Notes: a model not told the origin generated them from the letters alone. DNA of 64,000 nucleotides from Candidatus Treponema caballi (GCA_018066285.1 JAGHRS010000024.1:1279-65278), one strand, 5' to 3'. Positions 2,680 to 52,545 are shown, counted from the stretch's first letter. A program made the numbers and translations.

Positions 2680-3486
2680 ATGAGTAGAACCGATTTTAAG
2701 TTATCGGGGAGAGCAGAAAGTAATTTAAGAATATTTATTGGGTTCGGAGGTTTAGTATTAGTCGTTGCGCTGATATTCTCCGCCATCAATCTTCCTCCTG
2801 CTGAACCAGACTGGTTGTTTAACTGGAACCTGCTGGTTCCTATTATTCACGGCATTGTTTCCATCCTTACCATTATCCTGTGGATTAATCCTGACAACAG
2901 GGTTCTGCTTGTTACTGTACTTACCACGGAAGGAATCCTCTGCACGTTTGTGAGGGGATTTGGCATGATCAGCTGTATTTTTCTGAACATCCTTCTGGAA
3001 AGCCTTTTTGCGTGGGGTCGTTTTAAGAATCACGGATACAGAAAAGTTATCTTGATTTATACTGCATATCTGATAATACTGCTTAATCTTATCCGTGAAG
3101 GATGGGATATTTATTTCTTTACGGTAGGTTTTTCCCTGTTTACGCTGGGTTCTTCTCTTTTCGTTTACACTCTCGTAAAAGAAAAGCTTACCTATTATGT
3201 TCCGCAGATGACCCGGCTCAACGAAATCCTTGCTGGTGAGAATGAGCTTCCGGGATATGGCGAACAGATAAATCTCAAAGATTATGGATTTACTGAACGT
3301 CAGTTAAAGTGCGCGGCCTGTGCAATCCGCGATAACATGACGTATCCTAAAATTGCTGAGGAAATGGGGATAAGCCTTTCTATCGTAAAACGCGAGATGG
3401 CCATTGTCTGTAAGCAGTTTGCGGTAAAAAACAGGGATGAACTGTATCTGCTTTTCATCCAATACAAAGTGGATTATGGCCTGTAA
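2680..3486 (+). CDS. Polytopic membrane protein with a C-terminal LuxR/GerE-type HTH
   Basis: About 6 hydrophobic segments are followed by FTERQLKCAACAIRDNMTYPKIAEEMGISLSIVKREM, a LuxR-type HTH signature. Confidence 0.7.
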   Translation: MSRTDFKLSGRAESNLRIFIGFGGLVLVVALIFSAINLPPAEPDWLFNWNLLVPIIHGIVSILTIILWINPDNRVLLVTVLTTEGILCTFVRGFGMISCIFLNILLESLFAWGRFKNHGYRKVILIYTAYLIILLNLIREGWDIYFFTVGFSLFTLGSSLFVYTLVKEKLTYYVPQMTRLNEILAGENELPGYGEQINLKDYGFTERQLKCAACAIRDNMTYPKIAEEMGISLSIVKREMAIVCKQFAVKNRDELYLLFIQYKVDYGL

Positions 3487-4354
3487 AAAAGCACTTACTT
3501 TGACCCGTTTTTCAGTCATTCTCTTGATTTGTGCCGCGTTTACCGCATGTTTTACTGCCTGTTCTACGACACAAACGCTTCCTGAAGTGATAGAGTCTCC
3601 TGTTCCTGAAGAACTTCCGCCACCGCCTCCAGAACCAACGCTTGCAGAACGCGCCGCTGCCCTTGATGCAGCCTGGAACGCAGCTTACTCTGCTGAGCGG
3701 GCAATATCTGCTTTAGAGGCAGGTGCCGCCGGCAAGGAACCGCTTTTTTCTTCTCCAGCAGCACTTCCTGCCGGTGACCGTCTTGCCCGGAAATACGGAA
3801 CGGCGCTTGGCGGCTTTCTCGCGGATGCGGAACGCGGCTTTCTTGCTGAGCATGGCATTGAGACGGATTTTGCTTTCCTTAATGCGGAACTGATCCGCGC
3901 GGGGTTGCCGGAAGGTCCTGTGACAAAAGCGGATATTGAGCGCGTGCTGCCGTTCGGACAGAAGATTGTGATTGCAGAAATGAGCGGCGTACAGCTGCTT
4001 GAACTGTTTGCGTACATTGGCGCGCTCCCTCAGGGCTCCGGCGGCTTTGCCCAGGTTTCTGACGGAGTGACTTACACGCTCACATTTGATGAAACGGGCT
4101 TTGGGGCTCAGATTTCAGATGTGCTCGTGGGTGGCAGAGCGGTCGACGTTTCCAGGATGTATCGTGTGGCATTGAATGACTTTTTAGCAGCCGGCGGAAG
4201 CGGGTACAGCTTTTTCCTTCGCGATGATGTCGTGAAAGTGCCGACGGCTGTGGAACTGGCCGCTGCAATCGCTGACTATTGCAGTAACGGCGCTGATTCG
4301 TTATATATGAAGCAAGGAGAGAGAATAACCATTCACGGTGGCATCATCGAATAG
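3476..4354 (+). CDS. Lipoprotein carrying only a 5'-nucleotidase C-terminal (substrate-binding) domain
   Basis: The start is moved to ATG 3476 (MACKKALTL...), which gives a signal peptide plus lipobox FTAC. A Pro-rich linker follows, then VLPFGQKIVIAEMSGVQLLELF and LNDFLAAGGSGYSFF as in 5'-NT C-domains. No metallophosphatase domain is present. It overlaps the upstream gene by 11 nt. Confidence 0.65.
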   Translation: MACKKALTLTRFSVILLICAAFTACFTACSTTQTLPEVIESPVPEELPPPPPEPTLAERAAALDAAWNAAYSAERAISALEAGAAGKEPLFSSPAALPAGDRLARKYGTALGGFLADAERGFLAEHGIETDFAFLNAELIRAGLPEGPVTKADIERVLPFGQKIVIAEMSGVQLLELFAYIGALPQGSGGFAQVSDGVTYTLTFDETGFGAQISDVLVGGRAVDVSRMYRVALNDFLAAGGSGYSFFLRDDVVKVPTAVELAAAIADYCSNGADSLYMKQGERITIHGGIIE

Positions 4355-4374
4355 GTTATCTCATTTTTATAAGT

Positions 4375-4950
4375 ATGGATAAAAAAACACGTAACAGAAA
4401 CATCGCCATTGCAGGAGCTCTTGGAGCGCTCACCATTTTGTTCGGCTTCACACGCCTGGGACTTATCCCCTGGTTTTCCGGAGCTTCAATCACCATCCTG
4501 CATGTTCCGGTAATCCTTGCAACAATTCTTGCAGGATTGGGCGTTGGCGAAACAGTCGGCTTCATTTTCGGCCTGACATCACTTGTTGTCGCTGCAACAC
4601 AGGGAGTCGGAACCGATCTGTATTTCATAAATCCGATGGTTTCAGTTCTACCTCGACTCTGCATTGCACCAGTAGTATACTTGATATATAAAGGTCTCCG
4701 CCGCATCAGATGGTGCCCGGATTTCATTGCTGCAGGTATTGTTGCTTTCATAGGAACAATGGTAAACTCTGCGCTGGTCCTTTTAGCCCTTACTGGTATG
4801 GGAGCCATTACGTTTGAAGTTCTGGTTGCCATCATTACAGGCAACAGCCTTCTTGAAGCTGCTGCAGCCATCATTATCTGTGTGGCTGTTGTTGCCGTAA
4901 GAGACGGTGTAAAAGGCCGGCGGACAAAATCGTCCCTTTCAGAGGAATAA
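4375..4950 (+). CDS. ECF-transporter S (substrate-capture) component, PanT-like
   Basis: 191 aa with about 5-6 TM segments. The motif GASITILHVPVILATILAGLGVGETVGFIFGLTS resembles ECF S components. Substrate is unknown. Confidence 0.55.
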   Translation: MDKKTRNRNIAIAGALGALTILFGFTRLGLIPWFSGASITILHVPVILATILAGLGVGETVGFIFGLTSLVVAATQGVGTDLYFINPMVSVLPRLCIAPVVYLIYKGLRRIRWCPDFIAAGIVAFIGTMVNSALVLLALTGMGAITFEVLVAIITGNSLLEAAAAIIICVAVVAVRDGVKGRRTKSSLSEE

Positions 4951-4960
4951 AACAGAACAG

Positions 4961-6385
4961 ATGAAGATAATCATAGTAGGCGCAGGATTTACCGGCATTC
5001 AACTTGCCAAACGCCTGATAGCAGAACGCAATGATGTTGTGCTTATCGATAAAGACTCAGACACGGTTGCGCAGGTAGCAAACCGCCTTGACTGCATGGT
5101 TCTTCCTGCAAACGGAAACAGCATTAAGACACTTGAACAGGCTGGAATTGCTCACGCTGATGCGCTTGTTGCAGTAACAAGTTCTGATGAGCTGAACATG
5201 ATAACCTGTTCGCTTGTTGAATCAATGTATCCGGATGTGATAACCATTGCGCGCGTCAGAAACTATGATTATTACATTGACGCGAATGAAAGCGACGGAG
5301 AACCACGGGATTCGCGCCATCTGTACGGCATAAATTTCATGGTTCATCCGGATGTTGAGGCAATTGAAGCAATCGTCAACGCCGTTGAACATGGGGCCGT
5401 CACGGAAGCTGTTGATTTTGAGGGCTCAAAGTTTGAGCTTGCAAACATCACCATTGAAAAGAACAGCACGCTTGACGGCCTGACCGTTCAGGAAATCAGG
5501 AAACACACGGATAAGTCTTTCGTCGTCGCGTTTGTTGAAAAAGAAGGCGTTGCCATGCTGCCTTCAGGCCCTACCCTGCTTCATGCCGGCGACAGAATCG
5601 GTTTTCTTGCTGACCGGGATGACCTGCAGTCATTTGTGGAACTGTGCGGTTCAGAGCTGCGAGTTTTCCACAAGATTGCCATTCTTGGAGCAGGCCGCAT
5701 AGGTACCGGAGTTGCTGAAAAGCTCATCAAGCCGGCAAAGAAAGGCATTTTAAGCAGAATTTCCACGCTCAAAAAAAAGATTAACCAGCAGATTGTCATC
5801 ATTGATCCTGATGATAAGCTTACGCAGGCTGCGGCCGCACGCTTTCCGGAAGCACATGTGTACCGCGGCGAAATAACTGACGACAGCCTGATTGAGGATG
5901 AGGGCATTGCCGCATTTGACCTTGTCATTGCTGCAACGCACAATCACGAAAAGAACATGATTGCATCCGCGTATCTTGAATCAATAGGCGTCAAAAGTAC
6001 TGTCTGCCTTATCACAAACAGTTCGTATTCAGCAATTGCACGTAATATTGGCATAGATGTCTCTATTCCGCTCCGTGATACCGTTGTTGACAGCATTCTG
6101 AGTCACCTTCGCGGCCGCAACGTAAGCGGCATACACACCATTTCTGAAGATGGCCTTGAAATAATCGAAGTTACGCTGCCGGAAGACACAAAGCTTGAAG
6201 GCAAAGCGCTTAAGGATATTGCTGAAGCCGGCGTTTTCCTTGTGCTGCTCATCAGCCGAAACGAAGATGAAAGTTATGTGATTCCGGGTGGTAATACTGT
6301 ACTTCATGCCGGCGACAAACTGGCAGTCATTCACGATACAAAGGATACGCAGCATATAACGGAGAAGTTCGGGGTTCAGAATTGA
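4961..6385 (+). CDS. trkA: Trk potassium uptake system NAD-binding protein TrkA
   Basis: Two Rossmann/RCK modules (MKIIIVGAGFTGIQLAKRL and IAILGAGRIGTGVAEKL), each with an RCK_C region. Confidence 0.9.
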   Translation: MKIIIVGAGFTGIQLAKRLIAERNDVVLIDKDSDTVAQVANRLDCMVLPANGNSIKTLEQAGIAHADALVAVTSSDELNMITCSLVESMYPDVITIARVRNYDYYIDANESDGEPRDSRHLYGINFMVHPDVEAIEAIVNAVEHGAVTEAVDFEGSKFELANITIEKNSTLDGLTVQEIRKHTDKSFVVAFVEKEGVAMLPSGPTLLHAGDRIGFLADRDDLQSFVELCGSELRVFHKIAILGAGRIGTGVAEKLIKPAKKGILSRISTLKKKINQQIVIIDPDDKLTQAAAARFPEAHVYRGEITDDSLIEDEGIAAFDLVIAATHNHEKNMIASAYLESIGVKSTVCLITNSSYSAIARNIGIDVSIPLRDTVVDSILSHLRGRNVSGIHTISEDGLEIIEVTLPEDTKLEGKALKDIAEAGVFLVLLISRNEDESYVIPGGNTVLHAGDKLAVIHDTKDTQHITEKFGVQN

Positions 6386-7827
6386 TTTTTCTTTCAATCG
6401 TAAAAATCATGAGCGTTCTTCTCGCTATCGTGGCAGCGACCATGCTGCTTCCGGGAGCCGTGGCGCTCATTCTTGGGGAAACTGGCGCCGCCGTTTCGTT
6501 CCTGGGAACAGCGGGCGTTTCCATTGTGCTGGGGCTGGCCATCTGGTTTGCACTGCGCAAGTACACCTTTAAGCTTACAGCCCGTACATCATTTGTTGCA
6601 GTAGCTTTCAGCTGGATTATGGCCAGCATTCTTGGAGCAGTGCCGTTCGTCGTTTCTGGCGCCATTCCGTCTTTCACGGATGCGCTTTTTGAAAGCGTTT
6701 CTGGCTTTACGACGACTGGCGCCACAATCTGCAGCAATGTGGAAGCCCTGCCCCGCTCCATTAACTTATGGCGCATGGAAACGCACTGGCTTGGCGGCAT
6801 GGGAATTGTGGCGCTGACTGTTGCGCTTCTGCCGCTCATCGGCGTTGGCGGATTCCAGCTTATAAAAGCGGAAACCACCGGGCCTGAAAAAGGCAAGATT
6901 ACGCCTAAAATTACGATGACTGCCAAAATCCTGTGGTTTATTTACCTGGGACTGACTATTCTTGAAACCATAGCACTCCGCATTGCAGGCATGGATTTCC
7001 TTGATGCGCTGGGTCATTCGTTTTCTACGCTGGGAACTGGTGGTTTCTCTTCCAGGAACAGCAGCATAGGCGCGTACAATTCAGCCGCGGTCGATGTCAT
7101 CATCACGGTTTTCATGTTCCTTTCAGGAATCAACTTCAGCCTTTTCTTCATGCTGCTGAAAGGTAAGTTCGGTGAAATCCGCGAAAACTCAGAGCTTCGG
7201 GCGTATATCTGGATTGTCTTTATTGCGGGACTTGTTGTCACGTTCACTATTTCACCGCTGTACGATTCGTTTGCGGATGCACTTCGGTACGCGTTCTTCC
7301 AGGTTGTATCCATAATTACGACAACCGGTTATGGAACTGCAGATTATACAATGTGGCCTGTTGTTCCGCAGTTTGTCATCTTCCTTCTTTTTGGTATAGG
7401 TGGCTGTTCTGGTTCAACAGGTGGTGGCGTCAAGGTTGTCCGCTGGGTCATTATGGGAAAGCAAGCCAGGATTGAAGCGAAGAAAATGCTTCATCCGCAT
7501 GGAGTGTTTGACATCAGGCTCAACAGGACAAGCTGCCGTAAAGACGTAGTTTTCTCTGTTGCAGGTTTTCTCTGGGTCTATCTGATTCTTGTCATAATCA
7601 CGACGTTTGTTGCAGCTTTTGATACGCAGGATTTGTTCAGCGCGCTTACTACGGGACTGACTGTTGTTGGCAACGTGGGACCTGGTTTTGGAGCAATCGG
7701 GCCGGCGAATAATTTCGGCTTGTTCTCAAGCCTGCCAAAATACTGGTTCTGCTTTGCCATGATAGCGGGCCGTCTTGAGCTGTATACGATGATTATGTTC
7801 TTCTTCCCGGATTTCTGGAAGAACTGA
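6382..7827 (+). CDS. trkH: Trk potassium uptake membrane protein TrkH
   Basis: 481 aa polytopic protein with selectivity-filter-like TTTG/GTGG/TTGYG/GNVGPG repeats. The TTG start overlaps the trkA stop; an alternative ATG is at 6409. Confidence 0.9.
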   Translation: MIFLSIVKIMSVLLAIVAATMLLPGAVALILGETGAAVSFLGTAGVSIVLGLAIWFALRKYTFKLTARTSFVAVAFSWIMASILGAVPFVVSGAIPSFTDALFESVSGFTTTGATICSNVEALPRSINLWRMETHWLGGMGIVALTVALLPLIGVGGFQLIKAETTGPEKGKITPKITMTAKILWFIYLGLTILETIALRIAGMDFLDALGHSFSTLGTGGFSSRNSSIGAYNSAAVDVIITVFMFLSGINFSLFFMLLKGKFGEIRENSELRAYIWIVFIAGLVVTFTISPLYDSFADALRYAFFQVVSIITTTGYGTADYTMWPVVPQFVIFLLFGIGGCSGSTGGGVKVVRWVIMGKQARIEAKKMLHPHGVFDIRLNRTSCRKDVVFSVAGFLWVYLILVIITTFVAAFDTQDLFSALTTGLTVVGNVGPGFGAIGPANNFGLFSSLPKYWFCFAMIAGRLELYTMIMFFFPDFWKN

Positions 7828-23680: not shown

Positions 23681-23709
23681 TTGACAAATACACTGCCTGA
23701 CACTATATT
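23681..23709 (+). promoter_or_regulatory. Near-consensus sigma70 promoter TTGACA-N17-TATATT for the XRE/PIN pair
   Basis: -35 at 23681-23686 and -10 at 23704-23709, with an SD-like AGGCGAGG before ATG 23726. The ORF-track TTG start at 23681 is this -35 box. Confidence 0.6.
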
Positions 23710-23725
23710 AAAGGCGAGGCAGATT

Positions 23726-24259
23726 ATGTTTGAAACAATTAAATATCTCCGCGAGCAGAAAAAATTTTCTCAGGCACAGGTGGCAGATTATCTTGGAATT
23801 TCACGACAGATGTACATCAAGTACGAGCGGGGTGAAACAGAACCGCCAGTCAGCGTCGTCAAGGAGCTTTGCAGGCTGTATAAAGTCGGTTATGACGTTA
23901 TTCTTGAAGATAAGCACAGGCAGAAAGATACGGGATATTCAATAAAAGAGCAAAAGCCGCTGGAGTTTGCAGATTCGGGGATAGCGACTAATCCAAATCC
24001 ACCGTCATCTCTCTATTTCAGGGAAATACTCTCCAAAATGAACAAACTTAATTCAGATGAACTGATAAAGCTGGCCTCCCGCGCCCTCGACTGCGCACAG
24101 AAAAAAAAGAAATCTGTTCTGCATGAATGGACCATGGAAGAAAGTCTGGCAATGCATGAAAAACTGAGTGGGTGTATAAAAAACAGAAAAATCGAGAATT
24201 GGCGCGAGGAATACTACTTGTATCTGGATGAACGGTATGGTCAGGGGGATTCAAAATGA
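23726..24259 (+). CDS. XRE-family HTH protein, putative antitoxin
   Basis: MFETIKYLREQKKFSQAQVADYLGISRQMYIKYERGE is a Cro/C1-type HTH. A C-terminal extension of about 110 aa follows. ATGA overlap with the downstream PIN gene. Confidence 0.75.
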   Translation: MFETIKYLREQKKFSQAQVADYLGISRQMYIKYERGETEPPVSVVKELCRLYKVGYDVILEDKHRQKDTGYSIKEQKPLEFADSGIATNPNPPSSLYFREILSKMNKLNSDELIKLASRALDCAQKKKKSVLHEWTMEESLAMHEKLSGCIKNRKIENWREEYYLYLDERYGQGDSK

Positions 24260-24669
24260 AGATTCTGATAGATACCAATGTCCTTATTGATATGGCTGTA
24301 GAACGTAACAATAACCATAGAAAAGCCGATATCATCCTGAAATCATGTGTCTTCAAGAGACATGAAGGATATGTTACATCCCATTCGATAACAGATTTTT
24401 TTTATATTGTTAGAAAAGACTTACAGCCTGAAGAAAAGCGGAATTGGGTGAAATATATAGTGACAAATCTTACAATCCTGACAGAAGACAAAGAGGCATT
24501 TCTGTCTGCTCTGGGTGATAATGATTTCTTCGATTTGGAAGATAATCTTCAGATTTCATGTGCAGCAGAAGAAGATCTGAATTACATCATTACGCAAAAT
24601 CTCAAGGATTTTGCTTCGTCTCCTGTTCCAGCCATCTCTATTTCCGAGTTTGCTGATAAATACTGCTGA
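24256..24669 (+). CDS. PIN-domain ribonuclease, putative VapC-like toxin
   Basis: MKILIDTNVLIDM..., a later D/E (FDLEDNLQ) and IITQNLKDF fit the PIN acidic residues. Translationally coupled to the HTH gene. Confidence 0.8.
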   Translation: MKILIDTNVLIDMAVERNNNHRKADIILKSCVFKRHEGYVTSHSITDFFYIVRKDLQPEEKRNWVKYIVTNLTILTEDKEAFLSALGDNDFFDLEDNLQISCAAEEDLNYIITQNLKDFASSPVPAISISEFADKYC

Positions 24670-26901: not shown

Positions 26902-26974
26902 GGGCCACTAGCTCAGCGGTTAGAGCAGAGGACTCATAATCCTTTGGTCCCCGGTTCAAATCCAGGGTGGCCCA
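26902..26974 (+). tRNA. tRNA with anticodon CAT (elongator Met or lysidine-type Ile2)
   Basis: Hand-folded cloverleaf: acceptor GGGCCAC/GTGGCCC, D arm GCTC-AGCGGTTA-GAGC, anticodon loop CTCATAA, variable TGGTC, T loop TTCAAAT. The T stem has one C:A mismatch. No encoded CCA. The D-loop and variable-loop pattern resembles Ile2-type tRNAs. Confidence 0.9.
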
Positions 26975-27016
26975 GAAAAGCTTCCAGCGCAACGCTGGAA
27001 GCTTTTTTTATGCCTT
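26958..27016 (+). repeat. Direct repeat, left copy (tRNA T-loop/acceptor 3' strand plus terminator)
   Basis: 59/59 identical to 27638-27696 by block-wise hand comparison. Confidence 0.95.
26977..27009 (+). terminator. Rho-independent terminator of the tRNA
   Basis: 13-bp stem AAAGCTTCCAGCG-CAA-CGCTGGAAGCTTT followed by a T-run. Confidence 0.8.
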
Positions 27017-27081
27017 GTTGCCTTTAAATCCGCCAGAGCTAAAAAGTGACGCTGTACAAAAATCATGGTATATTAACTGTA

Positions 27082-27411
27082 ATGAATACACTAAAAATTG
27101 CTGATATTCAAAAAGCCTGCTCTGAACACAAAATTGTTTGGACGAACCACATTCTCATCAGGTTATTGCAAAGAGGAATCTTGCAACAGGATGTAGAGAA
27201 TGCGATAATGACAGGCGAAATCATTGAACAGTATCCAGACGATTACCCAAATCCGAGCTGTCTGATTCTTGGTGTTTCGCTGAAAGATGAAGTCATTCAT
27301 GTTGTATGTGGCCTTTGCGAAGGCACTGTGTGGATGATAACTGCATATATACCAGATTTAACACTCTGGGAAAGTGATTTTAAAACACGAAAAAATGGAG
27401 GTACAGAATAA
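27082..27411 (+). CDS. DUF4258-family protein, putative toxin
   Basis: IVWTNHILIRLLQRGI...GEIIEQYPDDYPNPSCLILG...HVVCG...WESDFKTRK matches the DUF4258 pattern. I prefer ATG 27082. An extended -10, TGGTATATT, lies 7 nt upstream. Confidence 0.75.
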   Translation: MNTLKIADIQKACSEHKIVWTNHILIRLLQRGILQQDVENAIMTGEIIEQYPDDYPNPSCLILGVSLKDEVIHVVCGLCEGTVWMITAYIPDLTLWESDFKTRKNGGTE

Positions 27412-27638
27412 TGACATGTTTCATGTGTAAGGGAAAAAACGTTGAAGATACAACAACGTTCATGTGCGATTTAGGAAATTGCATCGTAATTATAAAGAAT
27501 GTACCTTGTTTCAGATGTACACAGTGTGGAGAAATCTCTTATTCTGATGAAGTCTCAAAGAATATCCAGAAGATTATCGAAAAACTCAGAAAATCGATTA
27601 CGGATATTGCGGTGACAGATTACAAACTTGCCGCCTGA
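27411..27638 (+). CDS. YgiT/MqsA-type zinc-finger protein, putative antitoxin
   Basis: CFMCKG...VPCFRCTQCGE forms two CxxC pairs in 75 aa. ATGA-type overlap with the upstream gene (TAATG at 27409-27413). Confidence 0.75.
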   Translation: MTCFMCKGKNVEDTTTFMCDLGNCIVIIKNVPCFRCTQCGEISYSDEVSKNIQKIIEKLRKSITDIAVTDYKLAA

Positions 27639-27696
27639 AATCCAGGGTGGCCCAGAAAAGCTTCCAGCGCAACGCTGGAAGCTTTTTTTATGCCTT
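27638..27696 (+). repeat. Direct repeat, right copy (orphan tRNA 3' end plus terminator)
   Basis: 59/59 identical to 26958-27016. It begins at the last base of the antitoxin stop codon. Confidence 0.95.
27657..27689 (+). terminator. Duplicate copy of the tRNA terminator hairpin
   Basis: Same 13-bp stem as 26977-27009. It could terminate the TA cassette and, in reverse, the convergent membrane gene. Confidence 0.7.
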
Positions 27697-27718
27697 CGGG
27701 GCAGGCGCCCCTTTTGCA

Positions 27719-28369
27719 TCAGATGATTCCGAGTGGAATCAGGATGGCGAGCAGGAGCACATCCAGGCCGATCATGGTAATCAGGAAGCCTTTCTGGAAT
27801 TTGGGGCTTGCGGCGGGGACGAGGTTGCTGGCCAGGAAGAACGGGATGTACGTGGTGATGAAGACCGGGATTGCGCCCCACCACTTGTAGACCCAGATGA
27901 ATGCCGGTGTCCAGGCGAGGAAGATTTCGAACAGGCTGAACATGAGTGCCATGCCGAGCGCGCCGACGAGTTTGCAGTCCAGGCCTTTTCTGCCGTTTTT
28001 GGCGAGGTAGCGGGTGTTGGTGTCATCCGGGAGCATTTTCCAGCTGATGATGCCCGCGATTGAGAACATCATTGACAGTTCCCAGGAAACGCCGATGAGC
28101 AGTACGAATGTGGTGCTTTCGTTGGTGACGGTCCAGAGCGGGTAGCCTGCGAAGTGGCGGATGACCGCGTTCATGATTTCGTAGAACCAGTGCACGGAAT
28201 AGAGTGAGAATCCGGCGACGATGGCCTTCCAGTTCTTATTTTTCGCCTCTGTCCAGTAGATGTAGAACACTACGGCGAGCAGGGCGATGAACGTCCAGTT
28301 GAAATTGGCCGGGTCGCGTACCTTTACGGCATCCACGAGCGGCTTATTTGCGGGATCTCCAAACAGCAT
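27719..28369 (-). CDS. Hypothetical polytopic membrane protein
   Basis: 216 aa with about 6 hydrophobic segments. SD GGAGG lies 5 nt upstream of ATG 28369. Preferred over the antisense ORF 27647-28063. Confidence 0.6.
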   Translation of the reverse strand: MLFGDPANKPLVDAVKVRDPANFNWTFIALLAVVFYIYWTEAKNKNWKAIVAGFSLYSVHWFYEIMNAVIRHFAGYPLWTVTNESTTFVLLIGVSWELSMMFSIAGIISWKMLPDDTNTRYLAKNGRKGLDCKLVGALGMALMFSLFEIFLAWTPAFIWVYKWWGAIPVFITTYIPFFLASNLVPAASPKFQKGFLITMIGLDVLLLAILIPLGII

Positions 28370-29000: not shown

Positions 29001-29029
29001 TTGCCAAATTCTGTTTTCTTACATAGAAT
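29001..29029 (+). promoter_or_regulatory. Candidate sigma70 promoter TTGCCA-N17-TAGAAT of the C92-amidase/HD-GYP operon
   Basis: -35 at 29001-29006 (this is the ORF-track TTG start) and -10 at 29024-29029. ATG at 29052. Confidence 0.5.
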
Positions 29030-29051
29030 GTATAAAAGGGTCTGTTTTATC

Positions 29052-30047
29052 ATGAAAAAATGTAACTCTGCAGAAACTGTCATCAGCCTTAAAGACGTGA
29101 AAGATGGAGACATCGTTTTATATGAACTGAAAGAGGAGCCCTCTTTCGTTAAGCCGATTAAAGACAATCTGGAAACAAATTTCTATGTACTGATAGATAA
29201 GCTCATCTGCTTTGCAGAAGGCTCACATATTACCCATGCGGCCATGGTCTATGACTCGGACAAAGTCGTTGAAGCCACCATTCCTGCTGTCAGGATCGGG
29301 TCTCATATTGCAAACGACGATTACCGTCTTCATATCAGACGTGTCCGGAACGGCATAGATGGTTCAGTTGTCCTTAAGTATCTGCCACAGACCATTCCTG
29401 AAATTGAGGCGGATGGCGAATCTTACGCGATGATGATGGCTGTCGTTGCGGGTGTTTCGTGTCTTGTTAAGGCAAAAGTCAGGGAAAACGAAAACCTTGG
29501 GGCACTTGCTACAATCATACGATACGTTTTGTACAAGGTTGCCAGCTATCTGGACAACAAGAAACTGCCGTATTCTAACGGAGATGACAACTGGTTCTGT
29601 TCTCAGCTCGTCTATTATACGTACACGACGGCAGCCGCAAAGATACCGGAACCGGCGTTCGACATTGCCCTTCCAGACACATCAACACCGATTGCCGATA
29701 CGCTCATCCATAAGCTCGTCAGCAGAACGAATGCGCGTTTCCTGGGGGATGAGAGCGTTCTCCTGAAAAAGCCGGCTGCTGAAGACGAGGTCTATGCGCT
29801 GGCAGAAGACTTCTTCAATCCGGATAAGTCAGGTGAAAAAAAGAATGCTGTTTGCGGTGAAAAGGCAGGAAGCCTTTCTGCAGAGGATGCGTCGTTCTTC
29901 CTTACTTTCATAAACAAGCTCTGCAATAACAAATTTGATTTTTCAGATATTGAAAAGGAACTGATAAAGTTCCAAAGCGCATTTGTTATGCCGTCAGATC
30001 TGAGAAATTGTCTTGATGAAGGATATCTGGTTTCAGATGAAGAATAA
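29052..30047 (+). CDS. Permuted papain-fold (YiiX/YaeF, peptidase C92-like) amidase-domain protein
   Basis: GDIVLYE...GSHITHAAMVY..VVEA followed much later by WFCSQLVYYTY. This is the His-before-Cys order typical of the permuted NlpC/P60-like family. Confidence 0.55.
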   Translation: MKKCNSAETVISLKDVKDGDIVLYELKEEPSFVKPIKDNLETNFYVLIDKLICFAEGSHITHAAMVYDSDKVVEATIPAVRIGSHIANDDYRLHIRRVRNGIDGSVVLKYLPQTIPEIEADGESYAMMMAVVAGVSCLVKAKVRENENLGALATIIRYVLYKVASYLDNKKLPYSNGDDNWFCSQLVYYTYTTAAAKIPEPAFDIALPDTSTPIADTLIHKLVSRTNARFLGDESVLLKKPAAEDEVYALAEDFFNPDKSGEKKNAVCGEKAGSLSAEDASFFLTFINKLCNNKFDFSDIEKELIKFQSAFVMPSDLRNCLDEGYLVSDEE

Positions 30048-31398
30048 ACTGCTTGAAAGAGTCAGGGACTATTTTTATATTCCTCCGAAAGCAAAACTTG
30101 AAATTTCCAAAAAGAACATAAAGATATGCACTATTGCGGTTTATTGTCTTCTTGTGTTCGGGGTTGTTTTTTTACTCAGGGAATATCTTGTATTCTATCC
30201 GGATTATGGATTCATTTACTTGTTGTATTATGCTTCCTTTATCTTTACCAGCGTGCTGTTTCTTGTAATCTCCCGTATTAATAAGAAGAAAGAGAACTAT
30301 TACATAAATCAGGCATTGATTATCCTGACGTGTTCGTTTGTCTGCCTTCTGATGTATTTGAACATTGTGGATGGTCTCGATATTCCGCATGTTGTTAATT
30401 TCTATTTTGCAATTGTCGTAATGATATTGACTTTTGAACTGACCCCTTTTTTCTATACAATCGCCATTATCATTTTTTGTATCGAAGCGTTCTATTTTGA
30501 TTCTATCTCTCCAGATTTCAATATGTTCTTTCAGGTGAACAACGGACTTTTCTGTTCAGCACTTATCTTCTTTTCTTTCTACAAAAGGAGAATGATTTCC
30601 GTACGAGAAAAAAACAGACAGGAAATCGAAGATAAGAACCGACAGCTCAGTGTTCAGATTATTGAACTGTCACATCAGACAGGTTCACTGCTTATCAATA
30701 CGAAAAACCTTGAAAATGCTGCATTCAACCAGTCTCAGGCTTTGCAGTTGCAGAAGGAACGTATCATCGGAATTCAGAACAACACAATCATGAGCCTTTC
30801 CAACCTTGTTGAAAACCGTGATGAAGATACAGGTGACCATGTTCTTCGTACTAGGGATTATGTTCGGTTGATTGTGACAAGCGCATACCTGACAGGTGAT
30901 TTTCCGGAACTGAATGAAGGGTCTATAGAACTGTTCATAAAGGCAGCTCCAATGCATGATATTGGAAAAATTGTTGTTCCGGATGCGATTTTGAAGAAGC
31001 CGGGAAAGCTTACGCCTGAAGAATTTGAGCTTATAAAGCTTCATACGACAAAAGGCGGAAAGATTGTCAGTGATGTCCTCGGCAACGCTGAAGATGAAGA
31101 ATATGTAAGAACGGCAAAAGAAATTGCTACATATCATCACGAAAAATACGATGGATCAGGGTATCCTTATGGATTGAAGGGAGAAGAGATTCCATTATCA
31201 GCCCGCGTCATGGCGATTGCTGATGTGTTTGATGCACTTGTGTCTCCGCGTTGTTATAAAGAACCGATGCCTGAAGAAAAAGCATTCAGCATCATTAAGG
31301 AATCTGCCGGAACACATTTTGATCCGGAGCTTGTCTCTCTCTTCCTGGAAGCAAAGGATGAAATCATAGAAATAAAGAACAGGTATTATGAAAAGTAA
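30037..31398 (+). CDS. Membrane-anchored HD-GYP domain protein (c-di-GMP phosphodiesterase family), paralog 1
   Basis: About 6 TM segments, a coiled coil, then HDIGKIVVP, YHHEKYDGSGYPYGLKG and IADVFDAL. The start is set by alignment with paralog 2 (MKNKLLERVRDYFYIP versus MKSKLIDRIKEYFYIP). Confidence 0.85.
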   Translation: MKNKLLERVRDYFYIPPKAKLEISKKNIKICTIAVYCLLVFGVVFLLREYLVFYPDYGFIYLLYYASFIFTSVLFLVISRINKKKENYYINQALIILTCSFVCLLMYLNIVDGLDIPHVVNFYFAIVVMILTFELTPFFYTIAIIIFCIEAFYFDSISPDFNMFFQVNNGLFCSALIFFSFYKRRMISVREKNRQEIEDKNRQLSVQIIELSHQTGSLLINTKNLENAAFNQSQALQLQKERIIGIQNNTIMSLSNLVENRDEDTGDHVLRTRDYVRLIVTSAYLTGDFPELNEGSIELFIKAAPMHDIGKIVVPDAILKKPGKLTPEEFELIKLHTTKGGKIVSDVLGNAEDEEYVRTAKEIATYHHEKYDGSGYPYGLKGEEIPLSARVMAIADVFDALVSPRCYKEPMPEEKAFSIIKESAGTHFDPELVSLFLEAKDEIIEIKNRYYEK

Positions 31399-32743
31399 GC
31401 TTATAGACAGAATAAAGGAATATTTCTATATTCCTGCTGAAAAAAAACTTGATATTTCCAAAAGCAACCTTAAACTTTGCGAATTTGCTATAATTTTCCT
31501 CTTTATTCTGGGAATTTCCGGATTTATTATAGAGTTGACAAGGTACTATCCCTATAGAATTGACCATTTTACCTATTATGGCCTTTATCTTGTTATAAGT
31601 GTATTGTACCTGCTTGTTTCTCATTTTACTAAAAAGAAGAACAGTTACAAAGTGAACCAGACAGTGATTCTTTTTTCGTGTACTTTCATTATCCTGCTGA
31701 TTCTCTATTTCATTTCAAATGATATAAACATCAGTCATGTTTTAATGTTTTATTTTGCAATCGTTATAATGATTATTACGTTCAATATTACACCGATTTT
31801 TTATACCATAGCACTCGTATCGTTCCTTTTTGAAGTGGACATCTTCAGTTCGAATATCGGAGAAAGCAGAATTGCCCTGATAGTAAACAACAGCCTCTTC
31901 TGCATAGCCCTCATGTTCTTCTCTTTCTACAAGCGCAGGCTTTTATCTGTCCGTGAGAAGAACAAGCTTGAGATTGAAAAACAGAACCGTCTGCTTCGTG
32001 AGCAGAATGAAGAATTGAATCGGCAGAAAAGTTCACTGCTTATCAGTAAGCAATATCTTGAGAATACTGTTTTCAATCAGTCGCAGGAATTGCAGGCACA
32101 GAAAGAGCATCTCATCAACATTCAGAACAGTACCATCATAAGCCTTTCCAACCTTGCAGAAAACCGAGATGAAGATGCAGGTGATCATATCCTGCGTACG
32201 AGGGATTATGTCCGGCTGATTGCTATAAAAGCCAGGCAGACAGGTCTCTATCCTGAGCTTAGTGAGCCGGTGATTAATCTTTATGTAAAAGCAGCCCCCA
32301 TGCACGACATTGGAAAAATCGCTATATCTGATGAAGTCCTGAAAAAGCCGGGAAAGCTTTCAGCTGAAGAGTATGAGCAGATTAAGCTTCATACAGTAAA
32401 GGGTGGCAAAATCGTAAAGGATGTCCTTGGTTCCGGTGAAGATGAGGACTATGTAACAATCGCAAAAGATATTGCAATGTATCATCATGAAAATTATGAC
32501 GGTACAGGATATCCTGAAGGATTGAAAGGAGATGACATCCCTCTGCCGGCACGAATTATGGCTATTGCGGCTGTATTCGATGCGCTCGTTTCACCCAGGG
32601 TTTACAAGGAGCCGATTCCGCTTGAAGAGGCATTCAATGACATTGAAAAAGCAGCGGGAACCCGGTTTGATCCTGAGCTTGTTGCCCTGTTCCTTGATTC
32701 AAAAGATGAAGTCATTGAAATACTGAATAAGTATCAGAAATGA
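31388..32743 (+). CDS. Membrane-anchored HD-GYP domain protein, paralog 2
   Basis: Same architecture as paralog 1 and roughly 60 percent identical by eye. HDIGKIAIS, YHHENYDGTGYPEGLKG, and IAAVFDAL with Ala in place of the first Asp. Confidence 0.85.
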   Translation: MKSKLIDRIKEYFYIPAEKKLDISKSNLKLCEFAIIFLFILGISGFIIELTRYYPYRIDHFTYYGLYLVISVLYLLVSHFTKKKNSYKVNQTVILFSCTFIILLILYFISNDINISHVLMFYFAIVIMIITFNITPIFYTIALVSFLFEVDIFSSNIGESRIALIVNNSLFCIALMFFSFYKRRLLSVREKNKLEIEKQNRLLREQNEELNRQKSSLLISKQYLENTVFNQSQELQAQKEHLINIQNSTIISLSNLAENRDEDAGDHILRTRDYVRLIAIKARQTGLYPELSEPVINLYVKAAPMHDIGKIAISDEVLKKPGKLSAEEYEQIKLHTVKGGKIVKDVLGSGEDEDYVTIAKDIAMYHHENYDGTGYPEGLKGDDIPLPARIMAIAAVFDALVSPRVYKEPIPLEEAFNDIEKAAGTRFDPELVALFLDSKDEVIEILNKYQK

Positions 32744-52453: not shown

Positions 52454-52464
52454 AAACGCATCTT

Positions 52465-52538
52465 GGGGGTGTAGCTCACCTGGCTAGAGCGTTTGAATGG
52501 CATTCAAAAGGTAGTCGGTTCAAGTCCGATCATCTCCA
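52465..52538 (+). tRNA. tRNA-Ala (anticodon GGC)
   Basis: Hand-folded: acceptor GGGGGTG/CATCTCC with the G3:U70 Ala identity pair, D arm GCTC/GAGC, anticodon loop ATGGCAT, T arm GTCGG-TTCAAGT-CCGAT. No encoded CCA. Confidence 0.9.
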
Positions 52539-52545
52539 TAGAAAG

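Follow-up and report, generated by a model that had tools for sequence, protein, structure and literature searches.

A two-gene toxin-antitoxin cassette between perfect direct repeats at the 3' end of a tRNA(CAU) gene in Candidatus Treponema caballi

How a pair of small genes can come to be bracketed by perfect copies of a tRNA gene end, with no recombinase found in its vicinity, is the question raised by a locus in Candidatus Treponema caballi. The locus is part of a stretch of 64,000 nucleotides (GCA_018066285.1 JAGHRS010000024.1:1279-65278), hereafter called the window, in which an earlier note, made from the sequence alone, had pointed to a toxin-antitoxin (TA) cassette bracketed by 59-bp direct repeats that begin inside a tRNA gene with anticodon CAT. 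The tRNA gene, the repeats and the cassette are all on the + strand. In our estimate the chances are about even that these repeats are attL/attR-type (left and right attachment site) junctions of a non-autonomous 621-bp cassette of the cis-mobilizable element (CIME) type, seated in the 3' end of the tRNA(CAU) gene, and the cassette is best filed as a very small TA-only CIME-like element, i.e. as a variant of a known category.

The left repeat (26958 to 27016) and the right repeat (27638 to 27696) are identical at 59 of 59 positions, and the attL/attR-like geometry that had been described for them, with a start in the T-loop of the tRNA, is real. The tRNA gene (26902 to 26974; found by ARAGORN, and by Rfam as tRNA with 64 bits) is intact, has 73 nt according to both programs and encodes no CCA; its best E. 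coli matches are annotated as tRNA-Ile (87.7%), and it is probably a tRNA-Ile2 of the lysidine type. The fourth T-loop base opens the repeat, which takes in the last 4 T-loop nt and whose tRNA share of 17 nt consists of this T-loop end, the 3' strand of the T-stem, the 3' strand of the acceptor stem and the discriminator base. A single G, a hairpin with a 15-bp stem, the remaining T-run and ATGCCTT follow, 42 of the 59 nt thus being outside the tRNA, and the repeat ends 10 nt past the hairpin stem, within and just beyond the T-run. The left copy of this hairpin, T1 (26975 to 27007; 15-bp stem, 3-nt loop and then a T-run; -22.4 kcal/mol, z = -6.3), is predicted to be the terminator of the tRNA transcript, and the right copy (27655 to 27687) is the predicted terminator of the TA operon. 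The boundary sequences read CTT/GTTGCCT and CCTG/AAATCC (the slash marks the boundary), and the repeats are direct copies of the target; ungapped similarity between the two repeat regions reaches 66 nt at 95% when followed from 26951/27631. With up to 3 mismatches tolerated, the 59-mer still matches at two places only within the 64 kb of the window, and at none in 100 shuffles, which rules out a dispersed repeat. The T-stem pair 51:63 (C26951 with A26964) is marked as non-canonical by Rfam, and the C:A mismatch that had been noticed at 26964 is therefore real; it cannot be a scar of integration, since it is carried by every empty site and every relative that was found.

The insert between the repeats (27017 to 27637, 621 bp), which is delimited by the empty-site contigs and by an ortholog in a sister species (see below), codes for two genes only, a toxin followed by an antitoxin, and profile matches agree with what had been suggested for both. 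The toxin gene (27082 to 27411, 109 aa) belongs to DUF4258 (Pfam PF14076, E = 5.9e-26) and the antitoxin gene (27411 to 27638, 75 aa) encodes a zinc ribbon of MqsA/YgiT type (TIGR03831 YgiT zinc finger, E = 4.7e-12), the antitoxin start overlapping the toxin stop (TAATG) and the final A of the antitoxin TGA (27636 to 27638) being shared with the right repeat. A sequence search of the toxin against solved structures was uninformative and a fold search was required; the AlphaFold model (predicted local distance difference test, pLDDT, 88.8) has its best fold matches in the Salmonella TA toxin 7vd7_A, MqsR 3hi2 and BrnT 3u97, and the modelled fold is RelE/MqsR/BrnT-like. The pair resembles MqsR/MqsA in its toxin-first operon, in the MqsR/BrnT/RelE-like fold of the toxin and in the N-terminal zinc ribbon of MqsA. 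It differs from that system in that the toxin is a DUF4258 protein, a family of the RelE/ParE superfamily whose target is unknown (PMC11980606), and in that the antitoxin, which matches just positions 1-66 of the 131-position MqsA profile, has no C-terminal helix-turn-helix (HTH) DNA-binding domain. The same arrangement is common to the family, as 92 of 93 collected toxin homologs have a zinc-ribbon antitoxin partner directly downstream; an exact look-up of the antitoxin protein itself returned no record. By this kinship the DUF4258 protein would be toxic and the pair would act as an addiction module.

The cassette also appears to carry its own promoter. A consensus scan gave a putative promoter-like site at 27046 to 27074 (GTGACG, 17 nt with TG, TATATT), the -10 hexamer ending 7 nt ahead of the toxin ATG. 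The layout is alike upstream of the homologs on contigs L003, L004 and L011, where a -10-like hexamer is found 6-7 nt before the ATG. The toxin start has no Shine-Dalgarno sequence in the window or in these three homologs, and the antitoxin has GGAGG at 27397-27401. Since the -10 sits 6-7 nt from the ATG and a Shine-Dalgarno sequence is lacking, the layout suggests that the toxin mRNA is leaderless, in the window and across the family.

Closely matching strains lack the cassette. Logan contigs were retrieved by exact-protein look-ups of genes downstream of the cassette, and two of them have the empty site that the earlier note had predicted, with tRNA and terminator leading straight into the sequence from 27697 onward. 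Contig L098 (SRR18398427) equals the window minus 680 bp and shares its terminator allele, with flanks that match at 99.18% over 3882 bp; contig L002 (SRR21150969) is empty too, with two changed terminator positions and an identity of 99.61% over 2073 bp. Both run unbroken from the tRNA anticodon loop through a single repeat copy into cggggcaggc, and within one species the occupied allele is therefore longer than the empty one by 680 bp, namely the insert and one repeat. The window is matched at 100% by two further contigs from SRR10505697, of which L001 starts with the last 30 nt of the right repeat, as expected of a k=31 graph with the repeat present, and L015 ends in the tRNA anticodon loop. 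That such same-strain short-read contigs break at the repeat is the one point in favour of an artefact or chance origin, i.e. of an assembly duplication or a dispersed terminator-like repeat. Such an origin is highly improbable: the 59-mer occurs just twice in 64 kb and includes 17 tRNA nt, and assembly artefact is ruled out by an independent k141 MEGAHIT contig, L003, which has the same architecture with 64-bp repeats, together with the passage of L098 and L002 through a single copy without a branch.

Contig L003, an ENA contig from a sister Treponema-like species, carries the closest toxin homolog (87% aa identity) and has two cassettes in tandem at the same tRNA. The order is tRNA, cassette A, a second tRNA-end copy with terminator, the TA cassette and a third copy. 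Cassette A is unrelated to the TA cassette and comprises its own terminator followed by genes for DUF3791, DUF3990 and an 81-aa protein, with no integrase; the TA cassette (5830 to 6458) is 85.5% identical at the nt level to that of the window. The second tRNA 3'-end copy has 29 nt, starts GGTCCCC and is followed by a window-type terminator, and the third copy starts TCCCC and is 64/64 identical to the second. The identity blocks of the two unrelated cassettes thus begin at most 2 nt apart, with GGTCCCC and TCCCC, at the 5' edge of the T-stem, and the block of cassette A ends exactly at the tRNA 3' end. Contig L105, which comes from a sister sample and matches L003 at 100% on one side and at 99.7% on the other, lacks the TA cassette only; its order is cassette A, one att copy and chromosomal flank, the left flank of the second copy being joined to the right flank of the third. 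Empty sites are hence on record in two species. The tRNA sequence is the same in the window, L003, L102, L098 and L002, the L003 copy being 100% identical, and the tRNA is left intact at all occupied sites.

The age of the cassette can be estimated from the same comparison. Over 3 kb of host DNA the two species agree at about 86% (77-95% by gene), as compared with 85.5% for the cassette, and a search of 5.8 billion clustered proteins gave no copy closer than that of L003. With a divergence equal to that of the host DNA, the cassette has therefore been resident at the site since before the species split. The repeats are nevertheless perfect within each species, and some process therefore keeps them so. 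Candidates for this homogenization are gene conversion, cycles of excision and re-entry inside each species, and a fresh target duplication.

An enzyme that could have placed the cassette was sought in and around the locus. Pfam scanning of 54 of the 61 open reading frames (ORFs) considered in the window (the 75-aa antitoxin and 60 others of 90 aa or more) gave no integrase, transposase or resolvase, in agreement with the earlier note, and the sole DNA translocase among the scanned ORFs is the housekeeping FtsK. The insert is without genes for integration or excision, conjugation or mobilization. A 22-mer of the tRNA 3' end had 0 matches in IMG/VR and 0 in GTDB species genomes, whereas a 20-mer in JGI metagenomes and a 17-mer in IMG/VR gave chance matches in coding regions only. 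In a DNA search of the locus against phage and plasmid records the tRNA part alone was matched.

The wider TA family was surveyed for comparable repeats. GTDB species genomes gave 496 loci that encode relatives, of which the best 80 were taken, and these best 80 are mostly from gut Clostridia, Selenomonadales and Treponema. The 300 nt ahead of each toxin were aligned with the 300 nt that follow its antitoxin, and at a local alignment score of 18 or more flanking repeats were found at 7 of 78 species-representative chromosomal loci against 0 of 515 controls (Fisher p = 5e-7), the controls having the same geometry elsewhere in the same loci and being mostly coding DNA, and at 0 of 73 loci on viral contigs. 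The repeat on L042 is perfect (40/40) and consists of the 3' half of the hsp20 terminator with its T-run, the cassette being between hsp20 and glnA with no mobility gene nearby; on L096 the repeat has 37 nt and is built on a palindrome; and on L004-L010 the repeats have 93 nt and span a whole intergenic terminator region with no tRNA. In several family loci the right repeat begins 0-13 nt past the antitoxin stop. The repeats at these non-tRNA loci may be target duplications. None of the repeat-flanked family loci adjoins a tRNA, and tRNA adjacency as a family trait is ruled out, being limited to the window and L003 among 93 loci. The family has in addition 75 loci in IMG/VR, often near contig ends and beside lysogeny genes; on the viral contig L128 the TA pair adjoins an ImmA-like HEXXH gene. 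The identity of the phage-borne homologs is just 42-57%.

The CIME-type reading is ranked first because the identity blocks of unrelated cassettes coincide at the T-arm, because the block of cassette A ends at the tRNA 3' end, and because cassettes have accreted in tandem; this combination is the classical signature of site-specific integration at a tRNA 3' end. On this basis we infer the mechanism of integration and the enzyme involved as follows. The cassette would have entered in an ancestor of the two sister species by recombination in the T-arm or 3' end of the tRNA, and unrelated small cassettes would have entered the same site likewise. The left repeat would rebuild the tRNA 3' end and supply the tRNA terminator, and the right repeat would supply a terminator for the TA operon. 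Its only cargo would be a self-promoted addiction module, consisting of a putative MqsR-like RNase toxin and a zinc-ribbon antitoxin, and the cassette has been kept in both species and has diverged with them. Gain and loss within a species would proceed via repeat recombination, i.e. by excision or deletion to the single-copy site and by re-entry into that site. The recombinase would come from outside the cassette and the window, either as a tyrosine integrase acting in trans, as for CIMEs, or as host homologous recombination over the 59-64 bp.

Several observations weigh against this reading. Searches of IMG/VR, GTDB genomes and JGI metagenomes with tRNA 3'-end 17-22-mers gave no integrase with this att site, and the protein, att-mer and phage/plasmid searches gave no related larger parent element. 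The identity around the TA cassette extends 42 nt beyond the tRNA end, across a lineage-specific terminator, and the repeats are perfect within each species (59/59 and 64/64) with a terminator that differs at 4 positions between the species; a crossover limited to the tRNA part fails to explain perfect terminator copies without gene conversion. The right repeat of the window lacks the 11 nt TCCCCGGTTCA that L003 retains, and the left half of the T-arm inverted repeat, needed by a T-loop integrase, is therefore gone. Finally, homologous TA pairs at non-tRNA sites likewise have long flanking duplications.

The last point bears on an explanation that the earlier note had not raised and in which no recombinase takes part: a fragment with promoter and TA pair would land just past a terminator and duplicate tens of bp of target, the tRNA being involved merely as the neighbour of that terminator and the repeats later permitting loss or amplification. 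The enrichment of flanking repeats around the family, the perfect repeat on L042 and the 93-nt repeats on L004-L010, all with no tRNA and on L042 with no mobility gene, and the close placing of right repeats behind antitoxin stops are in its favour, as is the fact that it explains why the window repeat is perfect and spans the lineage-specific terminator. A precedent exists in restriction-modification (RM) units (PMC2853133). We consider it unlikely all the same, as the meeting of the left repeat edges of two unrelated L003 cassettes at the T-arm, and a cassette A repeat that covers the tRNA part alone, are better fitted by an att site; moreover, some of the non-tRNA repeats may be local repeated elements, the controls are mostly coding DNA, and no mechanism is known for insertion of this kind. 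It is rather improbable, too, that DUF4258/zinc-ribbon TA pairs at large are selfish cassettes which spread without a dedicated recombinase, insert past terminators and duplicate about 25-150 bp, with repeats that serve host-driven excision, re-entry and homogenization.

A further explanation, close to the island remnant considered in the earlier note, takes the locus for the static stump of a larger prophage or island from which all but the addiction module was deleted, so that the cassette would never have moved as a 0.6-kb unit and the pattern of presence and absence would result from repeat-mediated deletion and ordinary allelic exchange. A prophage stump is plausible because members of the TA family are frequent on viral contigs and often sit there close to contig ends and lysogeny genes, with the ImmA-like neighbour on L128 as an instance; CIMEs are known to arise through such decay, the cassette has diverged with its host at one site only, and the window attR is shortened by 11 nt. 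Points against a static stump are the tight ends of the cassette in both species, with a promoter region of 65-72 nt on the left and a stop codon touching the repeat on the right, and the two different small integrase-less cassettes in tandem in L003. The repeats of each species are also perfect despite a cassette divergence of about 14%, whereas those around the L004 homolog have decayed to 86-91%, and the phage-borne homologs have an identity of 42-57% only. The static stump therefore appears doubtful to us, to much the same degree as insertion with a long duplication of the target, and integration as a CIME-type cassette is preferred to either.

Comparison with known systems helps to place such a cassette. 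CIMEs are elements that retain attL and attR but no longer have genes for integration and transfer; the 3' ends of tRNA genes are frequent sites for them, and in streptococci they are abundant at the 3' ends of tRNA and ribosomal-protein genes (ICEberg 2.0, PMC6323972; PMC7563491). The cassette described here is similar in being flanked by att copies of the 3' end of its target, in having no integrase, excisionase, relaxase or transfer genes, in tandem accretion at one site (L003) and in a cargo such as TA genes. It differs in size, with 0.62 kb as compared with 1.2-13 kb for classical CIMEs and 130-220 bp for the gene-free microCIMEs; in that no integrase-bearing partner or parent element is known, the L003 partner cassette A being also without integrase; in a repeat that goes 42 nt past the tRNA into a lineage-specific terminator; and in its host, a spirochete. 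Phages, integrative and conjugative elements and islands that target tRNA genes share with it the block starting from the T-arm, the restored tRNA, the direct repeats, the single-copy attB in relatives and the use of one tRNA by several elements. They are set apart by the integrase, of which none was found beside the att sites or among the scanned ORFs of the 64-kb window, by an insert that has here two small genes, and by the window attR, which is without the 5' half of the T-arm.

Insertion of RM genes with long target duplication, with repeats of more than 30 bp, no mobility genes and an unknown mechanism, was described by Furuta, Abe and Kobayashi (PMC2853133). In the present locus, too, the repeat exceeds 30 bp and corresponds to one copy in the empty site, and the insert, at less than 20 kb, carries a putative killing module and no mobility genes. 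The difference is that a TA pair takes the place of the RM genes and that the repeat includes a tRNA 3' end, and repeats at tRNA ends were set apart by the same authors as probable site-specific recombination (PMC2853133). Most of the present repeat, 42 of 59 nt, is nevertheless outside the tRNA, and relatives at non-tRNA sites have repeats as well. Integron cassettes, the TA cassettes of chromosomal integrons included, and the pdif modules of Acinetobacter are also tiny units of 1-2 genes, with or without a promoter and without a recombinase of their own, forming tandem arrays and typically having TA cargo, but the boundaries here are direct copies of the target, not attC hairpins (GTTRRRY core) and not inverted XerC/D sites. 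An integron gene cassette is ruled out, as there is no attC-type core and no intI was found among the scanned window ORFs.

The surroundings of the tRNA gene are variable as well. In a distant relative, L102, the order is hflX, an SH3-domain gene, cdd, the tRNA, a different hairpin plus TTTTTTTATGCCTTC, a 138-aa gene and SIR2, with no further genes between cdd, the tRNA, the 138-aa gene and SIR2. The upstream surface-protein gene of the window, its 216-aa membrane gene and the block of a 348-aa gene and HD-GYP genes are therefore all accessory, and the earlier description of both flanks as accessory holds. The 216-aa AF_1327-like membrane gene (27719-28369) is missing from L102 and L105, as are the 348-aa gene and two tandem HD-GYP paralogs (29001-32743; the paralogs are 71% nt identical to each other), and the neighbourhood of the tRNA is therefore a patchwork of accessory insertions. 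A second TA-like pair, with an HTH_3 antitoxin (23681-24259) and a PIN_3 toxin (24256-24669), occupies an AT-rich patch between hflX and cdd, where L102 has the SH3-domain gene. No flanking repeats were found around this HTH/PIN pair (23681-24669), and no repeats of the 3' end of a tRNA-Ala gene (52464-52539).

The hairpin after the tRNA is entirely different by lineage (window 26975-27007, L102 2061-2088, L104 3945-3975, L003 4670-4712), while it is bordered on the left by a conserved tRNA end and on the right by a conserved TTTTTTTAT(G/A)(C/T)C; the terminator stem-loop seems to have been swapped between lineages rather than mutated. A second native hairpin is placed just outside the right repeat (27698 to 27711; GGGGC-AGGC-GCCCC, then TTTT) and is present in the empty sites too. 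A GC-rich element (ACGGGGCGTTGCGGGGTGTCCCCGCTGGGTGGGGTAGGCCGCAACCGTGTG) occurs just 3' of the att site in L003 (6534-6584), L104 (3880-3930) and L105 (3870-3920), and the window is without it. Logan contigs from three different samples all stop in the tRNA anticodon loop, at window positions 26937-26938, which hints at another sequence in the community that shares half of the tRNA, e.g. another att copy or a related tRNA.

On L003 the tRNA is immediately preceded by a PDDEXK_2 (Rpn/transposase-like nuclease) gene and a DUF2442/DUF4160 pair (2694-4485). Rpn-type nucleases promote RecA-independent recombination. DUF3990 genes stand beside DUF4258 TA pairs in two unrelated genomes, in L060 (2226-3185), an Anaerobutyricum metagenome-assembled genome, and in L003 (5018-5491), and DUF3990 may be a recurrent neighbour in TA or defence islets.

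The locus provides a clean natural case, with occupied and empty alleles in two sister species, and it shows how small a persisting integrated element can be: two genes, one promoter and borrowed terminators. The best reading of the tRNA(CAU) gene is that of an integration hot spot in this spirochete lineage, whose tRNA 3' end gathers integrase-less minicassettes in tandem, somewhat like the array of an integron but without the integron. An integrase-bearing element flanked by GGTCCCCGGTTCAAATCCAGGGTGGCCCA in these strains, if found, would favour the CIME or in-trans model, and with a trans-acting integrase the locus would be an ordinary CIME in a new phylum. Two aspects deserve to be pursued, namely how the repeats evolve in concert and the flanking duplications seen across the family. 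If the latter are target duplications, TA modules would join RM systems in entering genomes by an uncharacterized, recombinase-free route, and if insertion downstream of terminators is true of the family, it would offer many natural cases for working out the mechanism of long duplication. Entry of TA pairs without a recombinase, if true, would be relevant to the movement of chromosomal TA loci, a long-standing question.

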